Below are positions 34,201-42,091 of a DNA stretch of 64,000 bases, piece by piece. A program made the translations under genes and the position numbers. Positions within the stretch are counted from its first letter, which is position 1. Each line of letters opens with the position of its first letter. This DNA is from Escherichia phage VEc33: sequence record NC_048818.1; one strand, 5' to 3'. The notes below the pieces were generated by a model. That model was not told the origin of the DNA. It worked only from the letters and a program-made list of their open reading frames with translations, and did not search any database.

Positions 34201-34386
34201 TTACTCAGCTTTGAGTTTTTCAATAGCTGCATTAAGTTCTTTAAGAAACTCTTTTCGTACATTAAGACGATTGAGACTTACTAGTATATCATGTTTAAGT
34301 TCTTCGATATATTTCTTCTCAACTTCAATATTGTTGATAGTGCTATCACGATGAACTTCTAGCTGCGCAATCACATTCTTGGACAT
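34201..34386 (-). CDS. hypothetical small protein (61 aa)
   Basis: ORF. Confidence 0.35.
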   Translation of the reverse strand: MSKNVIAQLEVHRDSTINNIEVEKKYIEELKHDILVSLNRLNVRKEFLKELNAAIEKLKAE

Positions 34387-34488
34387 ACTTATTTCCTCAG
34401 TTATTAATGAAAATGGTATCTGTGGCTGAATTCGATGTCAGCAATGATAGCTGGTTGGCTACCGGTTTACTTAACTCTACACAGAATT

Positions 34489-34566
34489 TGGCGGTTCCTG
34501 CTGGATTCGAACCAGCAACCCTCAACTTAACAAGATGCCGCTCTAACCAATTAGAGCTAAGGAACC
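34489..34566 (-). tRNA. tRNA-Asn (anticodon GTT), tentative
   Basis: Acceptor GGTTCCT/AGGAACC, T-arm GCTGG-TTCGAAT-CCAGC, loop TTGTTAA; anticodon stem poorly paired. Confidence 0.4.
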
Positions 34567-35061
34567 ATATAAGTCAGAACTAGAGTTAATACGTTCTAGA
34601 TATTTACTAAGATCTCTAGAATTTATACTAAACCACTCATGCTCTTTTAAATCTTTGAAATACCGGTGAATTAGTTTTTCACCTTTTCGTTTGTCAAACC
34701 AAAAAGACCAGTGCTCTAACTTATAATCCCTATAAGGGGAATAAGTCTGATATTGAGCTAATCTCTCTTTTGGATTTTGACTCATACCTATTTTATACTG
34801 ATTTTTCCATGCAGGATTACTAATACAGTATACAAAACCTTCAGAAATAGGAAGTTTATTTTCCTGCTTAAACTTTATAAAGGAAAGTGCAGCAAGTTTT
34901 CTCGAATACATAGTATTCGTATTCTTTTTGGTATTACCATTGGTTCCTGAAAGATTTATATATTCTTCCATAAATCTTTGGATTAGTTCTGCGGTTATAT
35001 AGAAGGGCTCATTAGTAACAACGCCTTTCTTTACCAAACTATCAAAAACTTTTGTATGCAC
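34543..35061 (-). CDS. T5orf172-domain (GIY-YIG-like) endonuclease (172 aa)
   Basis: GFVYCISNPAWKNQYKIGMS ... EHEWF core; 172 aa, the namesake size of the T5orf172 domain; 3' end overlaps the tRNA. Confidence 0.65.
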   Translation of the reverse strand: MHTKVFDSLVKKGVVTNEPFYITAELIQRFMEEYINLSGTNGNTKKNTNTMYSRKLAALSFIKFKQENKLPISEGFVYCISNPAWKNQYKIGMSQNPKERLAQYQTYSPYRDYKLEHWSFWFDKRKGEKLIHRYFKDLKEHEWFSINSRDLSKYLERINSSSDLYGSLALIG

Positions 35062-35082
35062 TACTTCTTTCCTTTAGCAAAT

Positions 35083-35158
35083 TGGACGACCGCATGAGAT
35101 TTGAACTCACATAAAAAGGATTTGCAATCCTTCGCCTAAGCCATTCAGCCAACGGTCG
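35083..35158 (-). tRNA. tRNA-Cys (anticodon GCA)
   Basis: Anticodon stem AAGGA/TCCTT, loop TTGCAAA; discriminator U. Confidence 0.6.
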
Positions 35159-35235
35159 GTTTATCTTGTTCTGTCATGTTGCTTCTCCAGTTCAATTTAT
35201 GTAATTATTATACAGAACTTTTGGAAACTAAGCAA

Positions 35236-35514
35236 CTACATTTTTAAGAATTTGATGCCTTTCTTTTTCTTCTTATATTTCCACGTTAATGGATTCTGCC
35301 GATTGTGAACGCTTGAGATCTTCGTCTCGTCAAAGTTCTTCAATATCATGTAATCACAAGATAATTGTTCTAATGGAATGTGATCACCGTCAAAAGCATA
35401 TACATAAGGTTGTTGACTAGCACGATAATGATAGACTTTGTTAATTCTACGTTTTAGCGACTTATCAGCGCAGTAAATAAAGAAGTTTTCAGGATGCATC
35501 AGCATCTCCTTCAA
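35236..35514 (-). CDS. hypothetical protein (92 aa)
   Basis: ORF. Confidence 0.4.
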   Translation of the reverse strand: MKEMLMHPENFFIYCADKSLKRRINKVYHYRASQQPYVYAFDGDHIPLEQLSCDYMILKNFDETKISSVHNRQNPLTWKYKKKKKGIKFLKM

Positions 35515-35516
35515 TT

Positions 35517-35591
35517 TGGTGCACCCTGTTCGTATCGAACGAACCTCTCAAGCTCTTCAGGCAAGCGCTAATCCATCTCAGCTAAAGGTGC
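35517..35591 (-). tRNA. tRNA-Phe (anticodon GAA), tentative
   Basis: T-arm GTTCG-TTCGATA-CGAAC; anticodon loop CTGAAGA; weak anticodon stem. Confidence 0.45.
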
Positions 35592-35597
35592 AAATTT

Positions 35598-35674
35598 TGG
35601 CAAACCTACTAGGACTCGAACCTAGACCGTACGGTTTTAGAGACCGACATGCTGTCCAGTAACACTCTAGGAAT
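35598..35674 (-). tRNA. Trp-like tRNA with anticodon CTA (reads UAG), candidate amber suppressor
   Basis: T-arm CTAGG-TTCGAGT-CCTAG and discriminator G as in E. coli tRNA-Trp; anticodon arm TCGGT-CTCTAAA-ACCGT differs from the Trp loop CTCCAAA by one base; acceptor stem has two U-U mismatches. Confidence 0.4.
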
Positions 35675-35682
35675 GCAGAAAT

Positions 35683-35759
35683 TGGCGTCCTGTGCGGGGA
35701 TCGAACCCGCAAATCCTACCTTGAAAGGGTAGTGACTTTACCAGTTTGTCTAACAGGAC
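35683..35759 (-). tRNA. tRNA-Glu (anticodon TTC)
   Basis: Acceptor GTCCTGT/ACAGGAC perfect; anticodon stem CTACC/GGTAG, loop CTTTCAA. Confidence 0.65.
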
Positions 35760-35766
35760 TTAAATT

Positions 35767-35857
35767 TGGTGTTGGATGATGGAGTCGAACCACCCGAGAC
35801 CCTTCCGAGTCGGCAGATTTACAGTCTGCTTCGCTACCTCTACGATACTAATCCAAC
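35767..35857 (-). tRNA. tRNA-Tyr (anticodon GTA), class II
   Basis: 91 nt; acceptor GTTGGAT/ATCCAAC; anticodon stem GCAGA/TCTGC, loop CTGTAAA. Confidence 0.6.
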
Positions 35858-35985
35858 ATATTTAAAAGTATTCAAATACTAGTTTAAACACTTTTAAATA
35901 TGTTTCCGAATTAGATAACTATTATATCAAGTTTTAAGGCACTGAGCAAGTCAAATTTTAAAGAACTTGCTCAGTGCTGTATTAG

Positions 35986-36261
35986 TTAGTCGAACTTAGG
36001 AGTGACAGTTAAGGAGAACGGAAGTTCGAAAACTTCTTCGCCCTCATTACTAACGGTAACTACACGACCTTTAAGTTCAGACATTAAAATATCAATATCA
36101 GCTTTTGCATCTGGAGCCATGCCAGCTTCAATACATTTAGCTTTAACTTCCGGTAAAAGCTCTACGTTATAGAGATAGAGCCACTCAATCTCACCTTCCC
36201 AGTCTTCCCAGGATTTGCAGATTGCACTTTCAATACCAGTTGCTACAACACGATTTTGCAT
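35986..36261 (-). CDS. hypothetical acidic protein (91 aa)
   Basis: ORF with promoter motif upstream. Confidence 0.45.
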   Translation of the reverse strand: MQNRVVATGIESAICKSWEDWEGEIEWLYLYNVELLPEVKAKCIEAGMAPDAKADIDILMSELKGRVVTVSNEGEEVFELPFSLTVTPKFD

Positions 36262-36351
36262 TAATTAACTCCTCCATCAATTTATATAATTATTATATCA
36301 GAAATTTAAGGCAAAAGGCAAGTACATTTTTAAAAATTCTGTTTGGAGGAG

Positions 36352-36558
36352 CTAAACTCCAGATTCTTCAGCTAAGTCTAGGCTAATAAGAGTTATAGCC
36401 ATAATTGCTGCACCGTGTTCTTTTTCTCCGGTGTTTTTAGCAGAGTCTATAATAGTCTTAATCTGTTCGTAATAGCCCTTTACTTCTTGTTCAATACCTG
36501 CCTCGGCTATCATGCCTTTAGTCATGATTCGTTGCATAGTAATTTCACGGTTAGCCAT
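36352..36558 (-). CDS. hypothetical small protein (68 aa)
   Basis: ORF. Confidence 0.35.
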   Translation of the reverse strand: MANREITMQRIMTKGMIAEAGIEQEVKGYYEQIKTIIDSAKNTGEKEHGAAIMAITLISLDLAEESGV

Positions 36559-36733
36559 GATGTTTCTCCAATTTCATCTTTAATAGTCTACAAATAAAAT
36601 CAATGTCTTCATCCGTGCCTAGATCTCTATCTTCAAGAGTTGCCTTGAAGTTTTTAGTCAATTCCATGAGGATAACTTCTCTAGAACGACGTGTTGGCGG
36701 AGGTGGATGTCTATACATCTTATTTCCTTAATT

Positions 36734-36810
36734 TGGTAGGGGTGGTGGGATTCGAACCCACAAAACCTGAATTTTAAGTCCAGTACCTATGCCAATTCGA
36801 TTACACCCCC
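36734..36810 (-). tRNA. tRNA with anticodon TAA (Leu-type anticodon on a class-I body)
   Basis: T-arm GTGGG-TTCGAAT-CCCAC; anticodon stem CTGGA/TTCAG, loop CTTAAAA; discriminator A; 5-nt variable loop. Confidence 0.5.
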
Positions 36811-36817
36811 GTGTAGT

Positions 36818-37006
36818 TTAGTCAATTACTTTTGAGGCTTCAAGGTAGTCGATATAGTGTATGTTTTCTACCGTAATCATATAATCTGCCACTTTATCCA
36901 TAGCTTGGGCTTCAGAGGTAGCTCTGGCTAACCTATATCCTTTTTTATATTCATCCTGGTATTCTCTATCTTGGATAAACACAACATAAACTATATATAG
37001 ATCCAT
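36818..37006 (-). CDS. hypothetical small protein (62 aa)
   Basis: ORF. Confidence 0.35.
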   Translation of the reverse strand: MDLYIVYVVFIQDREYQDEYKKGYRLARATSEAQAMDKVADYMITVENIHYIDYLEASKVID

Positions 37007-37025
37007 TTGTTACCTCTATTTAATT

Positions 37026-37103
37026 TGGTGGCTCCCCGAGGATTCGAACCTACGTACCTTCCGGTTATGAGCCGGGTGCTCATACCATATGAGCTTGAGA
37101 ACC
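37026..37103 (-). tRNA. tRNA-Met/fMet (anticodon CAT)
   Basis: Anticodon loop CTCATAA with a G-C-rich stem; third CAT tRNA in the cluster. Confidence 0.45.
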
Positions 37104-37109
37104 AAAATC

Positions 37110-37198
37110 TGGCGGAAGAAGTGGGAATCGAATCCACAAGGCTATATTTCAAACCGACAGATTAGCAATCTGCTGCAATACCGTTATGCTATTCTTCC
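37110..37198 (-). tRNA. tRNA-Ser (anticodon GCT), class II
   Basis: 89 nt; acceptor GGAAGAA/TTCTTCC; anticodon stem GCAGA/TCTGT, loop TTGCTAA; discriminator G. Confidence 0.55.
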
Positions 37199-37219
37199 GA
37201 ATTTATAAGATATATTATA

Positions 37220-37738
37220 TTAGAAATTTAGCTTCATAGCAAGAAAATTTTTCAAGTTTTCGGTAGACATCTCATCTACGTCTACAGGAGAAACAAAGCC
37301 GTTTAATTTTCTAGCAAATTTTTCACCCGCAGGATCATTATCCCCGACAGCTACCAATTTAAAAGGTAATAATTTCAGTTGCTTTAATAACGCTTTTCCT
37401 GGAGAAGAACCCAACATTGCTAGGGCTGGATAACCAGCGTTATGTAACGCAACTGCCTTAAATACAGATTCAGCGATCAATACTACTTTTTCATCTCCAT
37501 TGAGAGTTTCTAGTCCCCATACACACTGGGTAGTAGAATAAGTAAAGTATTTAGCTTCAAAAGGGCACTTACCATGACCTTTTGGAGCAGAAGGATTATA
37601 AGTTTGGTAGCCCCTCAACATCCCAGAGAAATCATATAACGGGACTGTTAGCCATCCTTCCGGACTTAACCAGCAATGATATTTTTCTGTATCAAATCCT
37701 CTAGATAAGAGGTGCTGTGTTAGCTCATCAACATTCAT
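37220..37738 (-). CDS. Toprim-domain-like protein (172 aa)
   Basis: VVLIAESVFKAV ... LVAVGDNDPAGEKFA resembles the Toprim E...DxD signature. Confidence 0.45.
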   Translation of the reverse strand: MNVDELTQHLLSRGFDTEKYHCWLSPEGWLTVPLYDFSGMLRGYQTYNPSAPKGHGKCPFEAKYFTYSTTQCVWGLETLNGDEKVVLIAESVFKAVALHNAGYPALAMLGSSPGKALLKQLKLLPFKLVAVGDNDPAGEKFARKLNGFVSPVDVDEMSTENLKNFLAMKLNF

Positions 37739-37915
37739 ACCTGGTTCCTCTCTCTCAAATTTATAGATATATTATACAGAGAATTTAGCATTCAAGCAAT
37801 CAAATTTTTTAACTTTTTAGAGGAAAATCATAGGGCACTTAAGGGTAGCAGATAAGTGGTGAGGACCAAAATTTGTGACCCCACTAAAAATCCGGGGGCA
37901 ATTTTTAAAGACCCC

Positions 37916-37944
37916 TTGACATTTTCGCTGGGGTAGTGTAAAGT
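37916..37944 (+). promoter_or_regulatory. sigma70-type promoter (TTGACA-N17-TAAAGT) for the rightward three-gene module
   Basis: Consensus -35 TTGACA at 37916-37921. Confidence 0.5.
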
Positions 37945-38006
37945 ATATGTTATGGATGAGTGATCAAAGAGACACACATTTTCTATATACTAGGAGGTGT
38001 CAAAAA

Positions 38007-38978
38007 ATGACAGAAGAAGTAGCTAAGAGTCCTGAAACCGTCGCTAGCGTAGCAGCAGAACTGCATCGTCACGAGGAATCAGATAAGAAAAAGTGGGAGA
38101 AGGTCAGAGCCTACGAAGAAAAACATCGTGTTCACGATGAAGAAGATGATGATGAACATTGTCATAAATATGGAAAACATAAAATGCAAGAACCAGTAAA
38201 CGTATTCACTAGTGGCTTCCCTGGCCTACTGGGTGGTTACCCAGCAAACGCAAGTGCTTTCGGTGGTGAAGGTATGGGACTATTCGGAGCTATCCTAATC
38301 GGTGCTCTATTAACAGGCGGATTTGGTGGTTTTGGTGGTTTTGGCCGTGGTGCTGGCGTTGCCGCTGAAGGGACTGCTGTGGACGCGATCCTTTCTAACC
38401 AAGATACTGCAAGTATTCTAGCTGCAATCAATACTACTCGTACAGAAGCTAACCAGGGCACTGGGGCTGTTCTAAGCGCAGTAAACGGTGTGGGAGCTGC
38501 TCAAGCTGCTAGCACTCAGCAAGTTCTGACTACTATCTACGGTACAGGTGCTAATCTGTCAAACCAGATCTGTGCTGAAACTCGTAACGTTATTCAGGGT
38601 CAGTTCGATCTTTCTCGTCAGATGGATCAATCTTTCGCTGCTAACCAGATCGCACGTGCTCAAGATAAATTTGACTCTGCTCAGATTGCTTTCCAGCAGT
38701 CTATTCAGACCAATAACCAGTTTGCCGCTGTTCAGGCTCAGATGTGTGCTAACCAGAATGCTATCGAACGTCAGCTTGCCGAATGTTGCTGTGAGCTTCA
38801 GACTGCAATCGCTGGTGTAACTACTGCACGTATCCAGGACGAACTGAATGAATGCCGTCTGCGTGAAGCAATCGCTGCAGGTAGCGGTGCTAACGGTCAG
38901 GTAATTAATCAAATCGCTGTAAGTCTTGGTGCTATCACTCAGACTCTGGCTGGTCTGCAGGCTAAACTGCCGGCTTAA
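38007..38978 (+). CDS. Gly-zipper membrane protein with acidic His-rich N-terminus and Ala/Gln-rich C-terminal domain (about 323 aa from the RBS-supported ATG)
   Basis: AGGAGG RBS before ATG 38007; hydrophobic GLFGAILIGALLTGGFGGFGGFG segment; CCCE and other Cys near the C-terminus; no recognisable enzymatic motif. Confidence 0.55.
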   Translation: MTEEVAKSPETVASVAAELHRHEESDKKKWEKVRAYEEKHRVHDEEDDDEHCHKYGKHKMQEPVNVFTSGFPGLLGGYPANASAFGGEGMGLFGAILIGALLTGGFGGFGGFGRGAGVAAEGTAVDAILSNQDTASILAAINTTRTEANQGTGAVLSAVNGVGAAQAASTQQVLTTIYGTGANLSNQICAETRNVIQGQFDLSRQMDQSFAANQIARAQDKFDSAQIAFQQSIQTNNQFAAVQAQMCANQNAIERQLAECCCELQTAIAGVTTARIQDELNECRLREAIAAGSGANGQVINQIAVSLGAITQTLAGLQAKLPA

Positions 38979-38999
38979 TATTAAGGGGAGGAGCCCATT

Positions 39000-39416
39000 A
39001 TGAGTAAATATGGTTTTGTAAATAACGGACTTAATCAAAGTATGGGCTCCCAGCAGCCCGTTCCGGGACTGGATAACCCTTACCTACAACAGTTGCAACA
39101 GCGTTTAGCAGAAGCGCAACAGATGCAGCAACAACTCCAGCAAAACCCTGGAAGTGTGAGTCCTATGCAAATGATGCAGCAAATGAGCGGGCAGTCGCAA
39201 ATGCCTCAACAAATGCAGCAACAGGTGCCTCAGCAGCAAGTTCAGCAGCAAACCCAACAACCGCAGGTTTCTGCGGAAGGACAGGCAGTACTAGCCCTTT
39301 TCGAAGACTTCGCAAAGACAGAGGATGGGAAGCAGCTTGTATCACTTATGGGTAAGTTTAATAGCTTCTGCCAAAGCCAAGTTGCAAAAGCTCAAAATGG
39401 TGGTAATAACTCCTAA
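39000..39416 (+). CDS. Gln-rich low-complexity protein (138 aa)
   Basis: GGAGGAG RBS; poly-Q/M stretches. Confidence 0.5.
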   Translation: MSKYGFVNNGLNQSMGSQQPVPGLDNPYLQQLQQRLAEAQQMQQQLQQNPGSVSPMQMMQQMSGQSQMPQQMQQQVPQQQVQQQTQQPQVSAEGQAVLALFEDFAKTEDGKQLVSLMGKFNSFCQSQVAKAQNGGNNS

Positions 39417-39425
39417 GGAGGAATT

Positions 39426-39620
39426 ATGTGTTGCAGAAAATCTGTTTCGTGCTGCCCAATGCCTGTAGCACGTTGTTGCTCTCCAGCAATGTTTACGCAA
39501 ATACCGGCGTTCAATCCGTTTGCCTTTAAGCCTACTCTTATCCTGCCCCCTAGAGTAGATTTTCAGTCAAGATTGGCCTCCCGTATGGGTGGTTGCTGTA
39601 ACAAGAGTATATGGTTCTAA
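39426..39620 (+). CDS. Cys-rich small protein with four CC doublets (64 aa)
   Basis: AGGAGG RBS; MCC..SCC..RCC..GCC pattern. Confidence 0.45.
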   Translation: MCCRKSVSCCPMPVARCCSPAMFTQIPAFNPFAFKPTLILPPRVDFQSRLASRMGGCCNKSIWF

Positions 39621-39633
39621 AGAACCAAACAAT

Positions 39634-39668
39634 AAAGCCCCTAGTCGAAAGACTTAGGGGCTTTTTCT
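39634..39668 (+). terminator. Rho-independent terminator, one of two back-to-back hairpins
   Basis: AAAGCCCCTAGTCGAAAGACTTAGGGGCTTTTTC. Confidence 0.6.
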
Positions 39669-39684
39669 TTTGCCTTAAATACAG

Positions 39685-39721
39685 AAAAGCCCGCGCTCTC
39701 GGAGGAAACGCGGGCTTGGTT
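39685..39721 (-). terminator. Rho-independent terminator for the convergent leftward gene
   Basis: AAAAGCCCGCGCTCTCGGAGGAAACGCGGGCTTGGTT hairpin. Confidence 0.5.
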
Positions 39722-39740
39722 CGAAGATTACGTGTAACTA

Positions 39741-40688
39741 TTACTTGTTACGCATATCCATGATCATTTGACCATCGTAACCAGTACCTACTACAGTCTG
39801 AGGCACACCACCTTGATATTTCTGAGCACGAATCATATCAACTTCCAGTTGTTTCCAACGAATCATCTCAGGAGTAATGGTACGTTGCAGTGCGGCGTTA
39901 GCTTCAGCTTCTTTCTTAGCTGCGTACAGTTTAGCATCTGCGTCACGTTCATTAGCGATAGCTTGGTTGTTGCGAGCTTCACGATCTGCTTCTGCTTGTT
40001 TAACTTTTTGCTGTGCTTCCTGTTCAACACGAGCTAATTCAGCTTTAGCAGCATTAGCCTGTTCTTCACGAACTTTGGTATTCTGTACCTGTTCCATGAT
40101 TACCGGTGGCAAAGTAATATCCTGAAGGAATACCTGCTTAACTGTGTAACCATATGGGCGTGCGTACTCTTCAACTTCCTGTTGAATTGCAGTTTGCAAT
40201 TGAGCCTGAATTTTAGCATCAAACAAATCTTGTGCTTTAGGTACAGACTTACCAAACTCACGAATAGTAGACAGTAATTTTTCAGTTACATATTTGTCTA
40301 ACGCTTGATCCTGAGTACCTGCATTAATACGGTTAATCGGTGCCTTAGAACCATCAAACTGCAACATAACAGTCAGATCAACAGTGGATTTAAACTTATC
40401 CTGACTAGGAACCTGAAGTTTATCTAATTTTACAGCAATATCTTTAGTACTAAAAGTATCGAAAGAAGCAAAAGGATTTACAATATGAAAGCCGGGTAAT
40501 ACTGGATTAGGGTCTACTTTACCCAGGAATGTTTGAGTTTTAACCGTACCATCAGAAACAATAGTATATGAATTAAAAGCTAGAATTAAACCTGCTAAAC
40601 CAACTACAGCACCAATCCCCCAACGTTTAATAGTACGAATTACTTTCTGCTCAGAAGTTAGTTCTTTCATATTTTTAGTATTAAACAT
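39741..40688 (-). CDS. SPFH/band-7 (prohibitin/HflC-like) membrane protein (315 aa)
   Basis: N-terminal TM helix, SPFH-like core, Ala/Glu/Gln-rich coiled coil. Confidence 0.6.
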   Translation of the reverse strand: MFNTKNMKELTSEQKVIRTIKRWGIGAVVGLAGLILAFNSYTIVSDGTVKTQTFLGKVDPNPVLPGFHIVNPFASFDTFSTKDIAVKLDKLQVPSQDKFKSTVDLTVMLQFDGSKAPINRINAGTQDQALDKYVTEKLLSTIREFGKSVPKAQDLFDAKIQAQLQTAIQQEVEEYARPYGYTVKQVFLQDITLPPVIMEQVQNTKVREEQANAAKAELARVEQEAQQKVKQAEADREARNNQAIANERDADAKLYAAKKEAEANAALQRTITPEMIRWKQLEVDMIRAQKYQGGVPQTVVGTGYDGQMIMDMRNK

Positions 40689-40722
40689 ATATTTCCTTTG
40701 TTTTAGTTACAGTTAATAAAAT

Positions 40723-40797
40723 TGGCCGAGGTGACAGGATTCGAACCTGCATAAAGGAATTTAGAAGACTCCTGCCTATCCCTTAGACTACACCCCG
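40723..40797 (-). tRNA. tRNA-Arg (anticodon TCT)
   Basis: T-arm GCAGG-TTCGAAT-CCTGT; anticodon stem GGAGT/ATTCC, loop CTTCTAA. Confidence 0.55.
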
Positions 40798-41299
40798 TTT
40801 AAGTATTTTTAAGAACTCTCGTAAAAACTCTTAAAAATACAGACGATACCGGGAGAGTCATAAGTCTCACTCATTAAGTATTTCAAGACAAAATACGGTA
40901 ACGTCTATTATTTTCCAGTTTAAGTCAGGGTGACTTAGTGGTTATGTCCTGCGGTATATTGAGGACTCGGTTAGGCTTGGGGTCATGACTTCCCGCCTTT
41001 TGCTGCTACTCAACAGGAGTTATCGCGAATTACCTGTGCTATTGTGCACCATTAGTGACATCTCTCATGTCAGCATTTCCCACTTTGTGGATAGCTTGAA
41101 AAACTACTCCGATATGGAGAAAGAACTTCACTACCCTAGAATACCTTCTAAAGTTCTTCTTTAGCCTGGACATAGTTAAATCGTAATAAAACTATTCAGC
41201 AGACTGGTTGGTTAGTCTGGAACCAACTACCGCGTGGTTTAGGCAGTGCGCAACTAACCTCGGAAGCTTTTACGTTAAAAGCATCAGTTATCCAGTTCT

Positions 41300-41371
41300 T
41301 ACCGACCGTAGGATTCGAACCTACATCTTCCACCAGTTACGGCTTGATAATACCAATTATACTAGGACGGC
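41300..41371 (-). ncRNA. tRNA-like element (acceptor and T-arm present, anticodon arm not foldable)
   Basis: Perfect T-arm GTAGG-TTCGAAT-CCTAC and acceptor-like GCCGTCC/GGTCGGT; no CCA; sits in an 840-bp ORF-free region. Confidence 0.25.
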
Positions 41372-41647
41372 AGTGTTACTACATAAGTGATTTCCACACC
41401 CCACTATTTATAAATTAGAGAAGAGTTTAGGGGAGAGGTTTCAGACGCCTCATTTTACACGTTCTAGCCACTAACCGGGATTGCCGCCCCCCTGTGTACT
41501 AGTTTTACAACTAACCCACCGACTCTATTCAACGAATCTTAGTGCTCGACGCATCTTACATTAAGACAAGTTCAGCGTAATCGGCTCGCTGTTCCCTAAT
41601 TTATGAATATATTATACAGAATTTAAAGGCATTTAGCAAATAAATTT

Positions 41648-42091
41648 TTAATTAAATTCGCCAGCAATCTGAGCAGCAGTACCACCATCATAACGCCCAG
41701 AAAATTCTTCCTTAATCGCTTTCATCAGCATACCTTTTGTAATTCCAGGGTTTAGCTTAACTAATTCTGCAAAGTATTTACGAATCTCAGTATCAGATAA
41801 CTGAGGAGGCAGATACTCCTGCAACCACTTAGTTAGAATGTATTCATACTGAGCGGACTGCAAGCTATAACTATCAAGATCTTGACCATGAAGTTTAGCT
41901 TTCATCTGGTTAATGCTTTTTAGTTGAGCTTTGAGATAAGACACAAATTGTTCAGAAGTGATGAAATCTTTATCAATACGCTGAAGATCCCCGATTATGG
42001 TCTGATAGCTTTTAGCGACTTCTTTATCAGAACCATTAAACTTAGAATCCTGCAAAGCTCTACGCAAAACATCTAAAATATTCTCTTCCAT
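41648..42091 (-). CDS. GatB/YqeY-domain-like protein (147 aa)
   Basis: Overall similarity to YqeY-family helical proteins (recognised by eye). Confidence 0.45.
   Translation of the reverse strand: MEENILDVLRRALQDSKFNGSDKEVAKSYQTIIGDLQRIDKDFITSEQFVSYLKAQLKSINQMKAKLHGQDLDSYSLQSAQYEYILTKWLQEYLPPQLSDTEIRKYFAELVKLNPGITKGMLMKAIKEEFSGRYDGGTAAQIAGEFN

Follow-up and report, generated by a model that had tools for sequence, protein, structure and literature searches.

Escherichia phage VEc33 (NC_048818.1) carries three rightward genes, here called P1, P2, and P3, inside its tRNA region. What do these genes encode, and are they part of the phage backbone? We examined a stretch of 64,000 nucleotides from this genome (the window), which has 23 tRNA genes on the minus strand. 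An initial annotation, made from the letters of the DNA, had described three co-directional genes with a TTGACA promoter, ribosome-binding sites, and a terminator, and all of these are present (Table 1). Below, we show that the three genes form a self-contained, mobile, and dispensable operon. We also suggest, with a probability of roughly 35%, that this mobile accessory operon encodes a membrane-tethered cytoplasmic coiled-coil complex that is held together by cysteine thiolates and has a role at the cell envelope.

A mobile and dispensable three-gene operon

We compared the module with phages that lack it. In AKFV33, DT571/2, and SA001, both flanks are matched and about 1.9 kb is missing. 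We aligned the junction for AKFV33, in which the genes for a Toprim protein (on the left) and an SPFH/Band 7 protein (on the right) are only 96 bp apart, with one terminator between them. Inside the insertion or deletion (indel) are the promoter, all three genes, and the first of two hairpins. The second hairpin lies outside it, and because AKFV33 keeps this hairpin even though it has no cassette, we assigned it to the backbone rather than to the module. The initial annotation had the module run from 37916 to 39721, which is right from the promoter to the module's own terminator but takes in the terminator of the SPFH gene as well. It also described the module as convergent with its neighbors; this holds for the right-hand SPFH gene, but the module is divergent from the left-hand Toprim gene. 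Three lines of evidence show that the unit is self-contained: its presence/absence borders are clean, a promoter and a terminator belong to it, and it recurs in unrelated phages. In one other sequence (L015), homology to the cassette starts at ~37880, about 35 nt upstream of the -35 hexamer.

Table 1. Features of the cassette and its right-hand border in the window. ORF, open reading frame; pLDDT, predicted local distance difference test (confidence of the model); pN/pS, ratio of nonsynonymous to synonymous differences per site.
Feature	Position	Strand	Basis or remark
Whole cassette	~37788–39684	+	Indel relative to AKFV33 (which has no cassette): junction alignment, AKFV33 annotation, coverage across records
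Sigma-70-type promoter, TTGACA-17-TAAAGT (P12 of T5 and BF23)	37916–37944	+	Sequence, annotation
62-nt stretch from the -10 hexamer to the P1 start codon	37945–38006	+	Leader of the transcript and a few preceding bases
P1, 323 aa (T5.077, PHROG 8119)	38007–38978	+	ORF, annotation, profile, pN/pS
P1 residues 12–43, conserved N-terminal helix (AAELxRHExSDKK)	38040–38135	+	AlphaFold2 (pLDDT ~90–95), alignment
P1 residues 89–113, Gly-rich hydrophobic segment, GMGLFGAILIGALLTGGFGGFGGFG	38271–38345	+	Hydropathy
P1 residues 167–320, one continuous predicted helix of ~154 residues (~23 nm)	38505–38966	+	AlphaFold2, periodicity, alignment
P1 Cys260-Cys261-Cys262 (TGT TGC TGT) in QLAECCCELQ	38784–38792	+	Invariant, family signature
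P2, 138 aa (T5.078, PHROG 7894)	39000–39416	+	ORF, profile, alignment
P3, 64 aa, net charge +7	39426–39620	+	ORF, pN/pS, orthologs
Own rho-independent terminator, hairpin and U-run	39634–39672	+	Inside the indel
Second hairpin, backbone terminator of the leftward SPFH gene	39687–39717	-	Kept in AKFV33

VEc33 is a T5-like phage. The 2-kb stretch around the module matches 407 phage records, nearly all of them from T5-like phages of Escherichia or Salmonella. Each of the three genes is found in about 220 phage records, and a broader query of 4 kb, which takes in the flanking genes, matches 457. By record counts, about half of the T5-like records have no cassette, so the presence/absence check that had been proposed across T5-like genomes reveals a module that is not universal. 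P2 and P3 are found only together with P1. The GC content of the cassette is 45.9%, as compared to 39.2% for the window.

The record of T5 st0, which is a viable deletion mutant, lacks the part that corresponds to ~34218-42057 of the window, including the cassette, and the tRNA region is a hotspot of viable deletions of 200-15,000 bp (PMC12483538). In the Salmonella phage GRNsp8 (L092 1412-3146), a leftward pnuC-nadR pair, for a transporter of nicotinamide mononucleotide and for NAD synthesis, replaces the cassette between the Toprim and SPFH genes. Because of this replacement, we view the slot as a hotspot for cargo. Overall, the module is an accessory unit of the “moron” type, in which three genes lie between a promoter and a terminator that belong to the unit.

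The same arrangement is found in other phage lineages, in which P1, P2, and a peptide that begins with MCC are present in the same order and are followed by a terminator. Two divergent contigs of T5 size have the cassette (L087 and L088). A lambdoid phage (L089 and L090) has it on the opposite strand, between the Q antiterminator and the holin-lysozyme-Rz genes. It is also present in an N4-like phage that has the giant virion RNA polymerase (L093), where P3 overlaps P2, and in one further lineage (L094). In Pseudomonas phage KPP23 (62.8 kb; AB910392), the third gene is a 60-aa ORF, MCCNQPVPQCCG…RCCKKFDCC. The gene that is annotated at this place in KPP23 (ORF072, with a GTG start, L004 5969-6151) encodes no cysteines and is apparently in the wrong frame. 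We preferred the overlapping ORF with an ATG start because it encodes the conserved peptide, including the MCC start and four CC doublets.

Horizontal transfer has carried the cassette among virulent and lambdoid phages of Proteobacteria that are unrelated to one another; by sequence comparison, at least five or six such groups have exchanged it. Most of the carriers are T5-like or N4-like phages, which are virulent groups. No P1 of the cassette type was found in 185,579 representative genomes of bacteria and archaea (by full-length alignment and by scans with the lambdoid protein), and the DNA of the lambdoid cassette had no match in 5,426 complete genomes of E. coli.

In T5 (AY543070), the same stretch is annotated with promoter P12, T5.077, T5.078, an unnumbered coding sequence of 64 aa, and an “efficient bidirectional rho-independent terminator.” The layout of BF23 at the module is identical, with ribosome-binding sites marked and with the terminator labeled as “ter1.” All of the module's products are annotated as hypothetical in both phages.

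The promoter consists of TTGACA (37916-37921) and TAAAGT (37939-37944) with a 17-nt spacer, and 10 of its 12 hexamer positions match the consensus. Such matches by themselves are not above chance: we found five sites in 4 kb, as compared to 7.7 expected. Across 12 T5-like cassettes, both hexamers are invariant, while only 59% of the spacer is. P12 is labeled as a putative early promoter in another T5 record (AY587007), and T5 records annotate the tRNA region with early promoters. Given the type of promoter and the annotation of T5, we infer that the cassette is probably expressed early.

Downstream of the promoter, the 62 nt that lead up to P1 are 100% identical in the 12 cassettes, while synonymous sites of P1 differ by ~26%. 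No significant RNA fold was found in these 62 nt (z = -0.95), which leaves the idea of a structured leader RNA unsupported. The Shine-Dalgarno (SD) sequence of P1 is AGGAGG (37992-37997, 9 nt ahead of the gene), and those of P2 and P3 are GGAGG and AAGGAGG. An ORF finder had listed P1 with a start at the ATG at 37947, which we rejected: this codon has no SD sequence and comes directly after the -10 hexamer, so it is probably upstream of the transcription start. At the other end of the operon, the hairpin of the module's terminator (39634-39664) has a predicted energy of -20.2 kcal/mol (z = -4.65). A hairpin with a U-run also follows the third ORF in KPP23, in the lambdoid phage (L089), in the N4-like phage (L093), and in L094.

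Among 12-13 T5-like sequences, pN/pS is 0.19 for P1, 0.17 for P2, and 0.26 for P3, and third-position changes dominate. Because of this purifying selection and the excess of third-position changes, we consider all three to be real coding genes. Synonymous divergence drops along the operon (38007-39620), from 0.26 in P1 to 0.14 in P2 and 0.07 in P3. The DNA of P3 is unusually conserved relative to the constraint on its protein.

The three proteins and the triple-cysteine family

None of the three proteins had a match in Pfam (at E up to 1) or in NCBIfam, including the enzyme families for P1 and P2, and none matched PADLOC's models of defense systems at E up to 0.1. P1 and P2 have full-length profile matches to PHROG 8119 (E = 5e-196) and PHROG 7894 (E = 2e-80), which are both of unknown function. 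In the PDB, a sequence search with a profile of the triple-cysteine (CCC) core of P1 gave zero matches at E up to 1, and a Foldseek search with the AlphaFold2 model of P1 gave just a coiled coil from vimentin (E ~10). Literature searches by locus tag, accession, or motif found nothing relevant to the cassette genes, and the matches to accessions were artifacts of shared prefixes. The initial annotation had seen no likeness to known replication, structural, or lysis proteins, and by these comparisons the three proteins appear to belong to no characterized family.

P1 begins with a conserved helix, and the linker after it is variable, acidic, and rich in His. The Gly-rich hydrophobic segment comes next, with a conserved M-x-EPVNVF motif before it and a conserved Arg after it. 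This segment is probably a single membrane span. Its hydropathy (Kyte-Doolittle score over 19 residues) is 1.72 in VEc33 and 1.31 in KPP23, and it is lower in the lambdoid protein. The initial annotation had drawn attention to both of these features. The transmembrane (TM) segment is plausible in VEc33 but is weaker in the orthologs, and the His-rich N-terminus is present in VEc33 but is not conserved across cassette lineages.

The rest of P1 is dominated by the long predicted helix. An AlphaFold2 model from an alignment of 50 sequences had a mean pLDDT of 69.7, with low confidence for residues 49-126 and a pLDDT of ~90 over residues 170-260 within the helix. (An earlier model from 18 sequences was poor, with a pLDDT of 48.) The helix has a significant periodicity of 3.5-3.6 residues (p ~0.01). 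In the heptad register with the best placement of hydrophobic residues, Leu and Ile dominate the a and d positions, and C260 would be at a d position, in the core. These predictions fit a coiled-coil oligomer. Near the C-terminus, NGQVINQIAVSLGAITQTLAxLQ is nearly invariant. The invariant CCC has a partner, Cys247, 13 residues upstream. Of the window's 297 ORFs with 45 aa or more, P1 and P3 are the only ones with CCC or with at least three CC doublets.

P1 also has a nearly invariant internal methionine, Met60 (38184-38186), just ahead of the EPVNVF motif and the hydrophobic segment. In four other lineages, there is an AAGGA-like tract 5-8 nt upstream of it, and the SD sequence is weak in VEc33 and in T5. 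With this mixed evidence, Met60 could be an internal start that gives a short isoform. Holins and antiholins are small, are encoded in lysis cassettes, and often have dual starts; P1 is a poor fit to them, as it has 323 aa, lies in the tRNA region, and has just a weak SD sequence at Met60.

P2 was described as rich in glutamine and methionine, and indeed it is 27.5% Q and 7.2% M, but its richness in methionine is not conserved. Because of this lack of conservation, we dropped the idea that the Met-rich stretch is a copper motif. The conserved parts of P2 are an N-terminal helix and a C-terminal motif, LFEEFAxT(E/D)DGKQLVSxxGKFNxFCQS, with one invariant Cys; the middle is a variable linker that is rich in Q and P. 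Some records name P2 as the catalytic subunit of a cAMP-dependent protein kinase (“kapc”). This label originates in a record of T5 (AY587007) and has spread from there, and we rejected it, as no kinase family in Pfam or NCBIfam matches P2.

P3 has 64 aa and four CC doublets, as had been noted. It begins with MCC, is 12.5% Cys, is rich in Pro and Phe, and has a central FNPF motif. Its positive charge contrasts with that of P1 (-12). P3 is unannotated in most records and has no PHROG, and orthologs of 49-71 aa are present in every cassette lineage that we checked. Conservation across lineages is limited to the MCC start, the second CC doublet, and FNPF. We regard P3 as a conserved and mostly unannotated micropeptide. 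P3 and all of its orthologs start directly with MCC or MCGCC, with no hydrophobic leader, signal, or lipobox, and we found no export signal on P2 or P3.

These properties bear on a suggestion in the initial annotation, which was that the cassette encodes a membrane-active toxin similar to bacteriocins or a set of precursors of modified peptides. A Gly-rich hydrophobic segment together with a small Cys-rich peptide might be expected in such a system. However, the cassette and its flanks have no leader or signal, no exporter, no immunity gene, and no modifying-enzyme domain; P1 is a 323-aa coiled-coil protein; P3 is poorly conserved beyond the three features just described; and the cassette occurs only inside phage genomes, with none in the bacterial genomes that we scanned. 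We consider this suggestion to be very improbable.

The CCC motif is found far beyond the cassette. A wide search found close relatives of P1 in only 27 clusters, and an exhaustive profile search found 105 representatives, of which five were strong. CCC is present in 68 of 102 distant representatives. The shared core has QL(Q/E)AC ~13 residues upstream, then (Q/R)(L/I)A(E/D)CCCE(L/I)K, and then R(L/I)RD(E/A)L. We found this core in viral contigs: in T5-like phages, in ~60 contigs of gut phages, in a 473-kb contig (in tandem copies), and in five contigs from metagenome-assembled genomes (MAGs) of giant viruses. Many members of the family also have the Gly-rich hydrophobic segment; relatives with no TM segment are present in the jumbo contig and in giant-virus MAGs. 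Some other relatives share just the N-terminal part of P1 (the His-rich stretch, EPVNVF, and the hydrophobic segment). No member of the CCC family belongs to a Pfam family, and the PHROGs involved are three families, all of unknown function. No functional name for any member was present in any source that we examined. From these sequence comparisons, the CCC core defines a large, unnamed, virus-wide family that was not characterized before.

Two kinds of members have additional features. The 473-kb viral contig has three CCC-family genes in tandem (L017 5735-11107), with repeated (A/S)(V/I)ERNG units, that adjoin a gene for a metallophosphoesterase. The members from giant-virus MAGs, of 436-506 aa, combine the same repeats with the CCC core.

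In gut phages, stand-alone CCC genes lie between tail fiber and integrase genes, directly after a small Q/M-rich ORF. In two of these contigs (L021 7345-7569 and L057 7334-7576), the upstream ORF has 74-80 aa and resembles P2 in composition. The distant stand-alone genes have no partner that encodes a CC peptide. In another contig (L084), the CCC gene is two ORFs downstream of an endolysin and an ORF with two TM segments.

Locations such as these raise the possibility that the cassette provides a regulator of lysis or an accessory factor for it, for instance one that sets the timing of lysis or acts on the membrane with the holin. Three independent contexts are near lysis genes: the lambdoid cassette, which is divergent from the holin; L084; and the ~60 gut phage contigs (tail fiber/integrase). 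The nearly invariant methionine before the hydrophobic segment also recalls holins with dual starts, but the SD sequence before it is weak in T5 and in the window. Furthermore, the neighborhoods of lysis genes are general hotspots for accessory genes, and the T5-like cassette is far from the lysis genes, in the tRNA region and behind a host-type promoter. Phages with no cassette are listed in records with propagation hosts. A role in lysis therefore seems improbable.

Orientation in the membrane and possible roles

If P1 crosses the membrane, then its orientation determines which compartment its cysteines are in. Of 61 non-redundant members of the family, 42 have Lys and Arg on the C-terminal side of the hydrophobic segment rather than on its N-terminal side, and 3 have the reverse (p = 4e-8). 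In 25 members, the N-terminal tail is short and almost free of Lys and Arg. In members with long N-terminal tails, His is 6.3% of the tail and 0.6% elsewhere, and Cys has the opposite polarity. Because of the position of Lys and Arg, the short tails, and the partition of His and Cys, we favor a topology in which the N-terminus is outside and the C-terminus is inside. This topology also fits the relatives that have no TM segment and the lack of export signals on P2 and P3.

We therefore propose the following as our best estimate of how the complex might work. P1 would cross the inner membrane once, via the Gly-rich segment, and would oligomerize through this segment and through the ~23 nm coiled coil in the cytoplasm. 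The conserved cysteines would then all be cytoplasmic: C247 and CCC260-262 of P1, the invariant Cys of P2, and the CC doublets of P3. The three proteins would be joined through thiolates that they share, and a metal ion would most likely form the bridge. The complex would be made early, from the host-type promoter, and would have an accessory and conditionally useful role at the cell envelope. Our best guess is that it may protect the infected cell against competing phages or against a membrane-linked response of the host.

Several observations weigh against this proposal. The hydrophobic segment barely reaches the level of a TM segment in VEc33 and is weaker in KPP23 and in the lambdoid version. 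The N-terminal domain of P1, with 90 residues and 12 Lys/Arg, would be hard to translocate, which favors the opposite orientation. The interaction of P1, P2, and P3 is suggested only by the fact that they occur together. The richness in His and Met varies from lineage to lineage, and in P3 nothing is constant beyond the MCC start, the second CC doublet, and FNPF. Nothing ties the cassette to exclusion or to defense, and PADLOC had no match. Finally, stand-alone CCC genes are often near lysis genes, which points to a different role.

In the opposite orientation, the N-terminal domain would be cytoplasmic, the ~23 nm coiled coil would span the periplasm, and the CCC would form disulfides between chains. 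The result would be a stalk similar to an i-spanin or to TolA, which would act in contact with the outer membrane, in superinfection exclusion, or in lysis. A helix of ~23 nm is close to the width of the periplasm of E. coli, and the long and charged N-terminal domain (12 Lys/Arg and 19 Asp/Glu) is more easily left inside, but the positive-inside signal across the family points the other way. In spanins such as Rz/Rz1 of phage lambda, coiled coils are linked by disulfides and have a small partner that is rich in Pro. P3 is also small and Pro-rich, it overlaps P2 in the N4-like phage, and the lambdoid cassette adjoins the holin; however, neither P2 nor P3 has a signal peptide or a lipobox, there is no match to Phage_lysis or Rz in Pfam, and the lambdoid phage already has an Rz. 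The relatives with no TM segment in giant-virus MAGs and in the jumbo contig also argue against a periplasmic stalk, as does a promoter of the host sigma-70 type that is labeled as putative early (AY587007). Overall, we think that this orientation is unlikely.

Another way to interpret the partition of His and Cys, which accepts that the N-terminus is outside, is that the cassette is a module for handling metals. The His-rich and acidic outer domain would capture a thiophilic metal (copper, zinc, or nickel); an oligomer of the Gly zipper would conduct the ion; and the cytoplasmic CCC and CC thiolates of P1 and P3 would receive or sequester it, as with Ctr1 and a Cys-rich chaperone. The high Cys content of P3 is consistent with this idea, CCC motifs bind metals in other proteins, and in a relative the same slot carries another module of a transporter and a cytoplasmic enzyme (pnuC-nadR). 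On the other hand, the enrichment of His is missing in several cassette lineages (KPP23 and P0021-P0023), P2 does not keep its Met-rich stretch, one weak TM segment could hardly form a selective pore, and there is no homology to a metal transporter or chaperone in Pfam or NCBIfam. In a peptide similar to metallothioneins or metallochaperones, a conserved Cys pattern would be expected, and across lineages P3 keeps just the cysteines of the MCC start and of the second CC doublet. This makes metal handling rather unlikely, in our view.

To return to the membrane-tethered cytoplasmic complex, the broad distribution of the CCC core leads to a more general and more doubtful proposal. Tentatively, QLAECCCE(L/I)K…R(L/I)RD(E/A)L may define a new, virus-wide coiled-coil domain that tailed phages share with a jumbo contig and with MAGs of giant viruses, which infect eukaryotes. 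In phages of Proteobacteria, the domain would have been combined with two dedicated partners, a Q-rich adaptor and the MCC micropeptide, as a mobile system of three genes that might build a fiber, linked by thiolates or metals, at the inner face of the membrane. If this is true, then such a fiber-building system would represent a kind of accessory machinery that is new among phages and has no characterized counterpart.

Neighboring genes, significance, and known systems

The flanking genes have their own annotation problems. The SPFH/Band 7 protein (39741-40688) is misnamed as “lipoprotein” in public records. The Toprim-only, “primase-like” protein (37220-37738) has a weak match (5e-7) to a PADLOC model, the DRT-associated “RTasDnaG-like” model, which probably reflects just the shared Toprim domain. 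Within the backbone hairpin to the right of the cassette, the GCGC at 39693-39696 is annotated in T5 as a “major DNA single-chain interruption” (32.6% nick). Further to the left, the tRNA cluster includes a tRNA with anticodon CTA (35598-35674; labeled “Pyl” by ARAGORN), which is of the amber-suppressor type. At 36718-37110, the window has tRNA-Leu(taa) and a 62-aa ORF, where T5 carries hegA (an HNH endonuclease) and tRNA-Ile2.

In T5, a classic model phage, the three genes have remained “hypothetical” since the genome was annotated, and most records do not call one of them. Because this portable unit is kept whole in phages of the T5-like, N4-like, lambdoid, and Pseudomonas groups, it is a defined and testable system rather than three anonymous ORFs. 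The invariant triple-cysteine family is sizeable and uncharacterized, and it links phages with giant viruses. The strains for a direct test of function already exist, as there are natural phages with and without the cassette, as well as T5 st0.

How does the cassette compare to known systems? Runs of three cysteines are known as metal ligands in Inhibitor-3 of protein phosphatase PP1 (PMC10066265) and in a metallothionein from Yarrowia (PMC13107397), and in these proteins, as in P1, the invariant run is the functional core or a candidate for it. The folds and the organisms are unrelated, and the CCC of P1 is inside a long coiled-coil helix, where metal binding is hypothetical.

In its genetic organization, the cassette is most similar to the morons of phages, such as bor and lom of lambda or gp15 of HK97, which are autonomous accessory transcription units as defined by Hendrix and colleagues. 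Like them, it brings along a promoter and a terminator and lies between backbone genes, where such units are often placed on the opposite strand. It differs from the backbone in base composition, some close relatives carry it and others do not, and lytic growth does not require it. Unlike the classical morons, which are in temperate phages, are expressed from the prophage, and benefit the lysogen, the cassette is mainly in virulent T5-like and N4-like phages, with none in the bacterial chromosomes that we scanned, and it has three co-evolving genes instead of one.

The likeness to Rz/Rz1 of lambda is in the proteins: a membrane-anchored coiled coil with conserved Cys is combined with a Pro-rich, Cys-containing peptide of ~60 aa, and in one cassette lineage the small gene overlaps its neighbor. 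The differences are that P1 does not match Rz (PF03245), that P3 has no lipobox, that the coiled coil of P1 would be cytoplasmic in the topology that we favor, that the promoter is of the sigma-70 type and putatively early, and that the lambdoid carrier has its own Rz. Finally, the exclusion proteins Imm and Sp of T4 and Llp of T5 are made early. They are membrane-associated accessory proteins that are not essential and that vary among relatives; judging from its genes, the cassette is similar in these respects. Imm, Sp, and Llp are single small proteins with no homology to the proteins of the cassette, which would instead form a complex of three.

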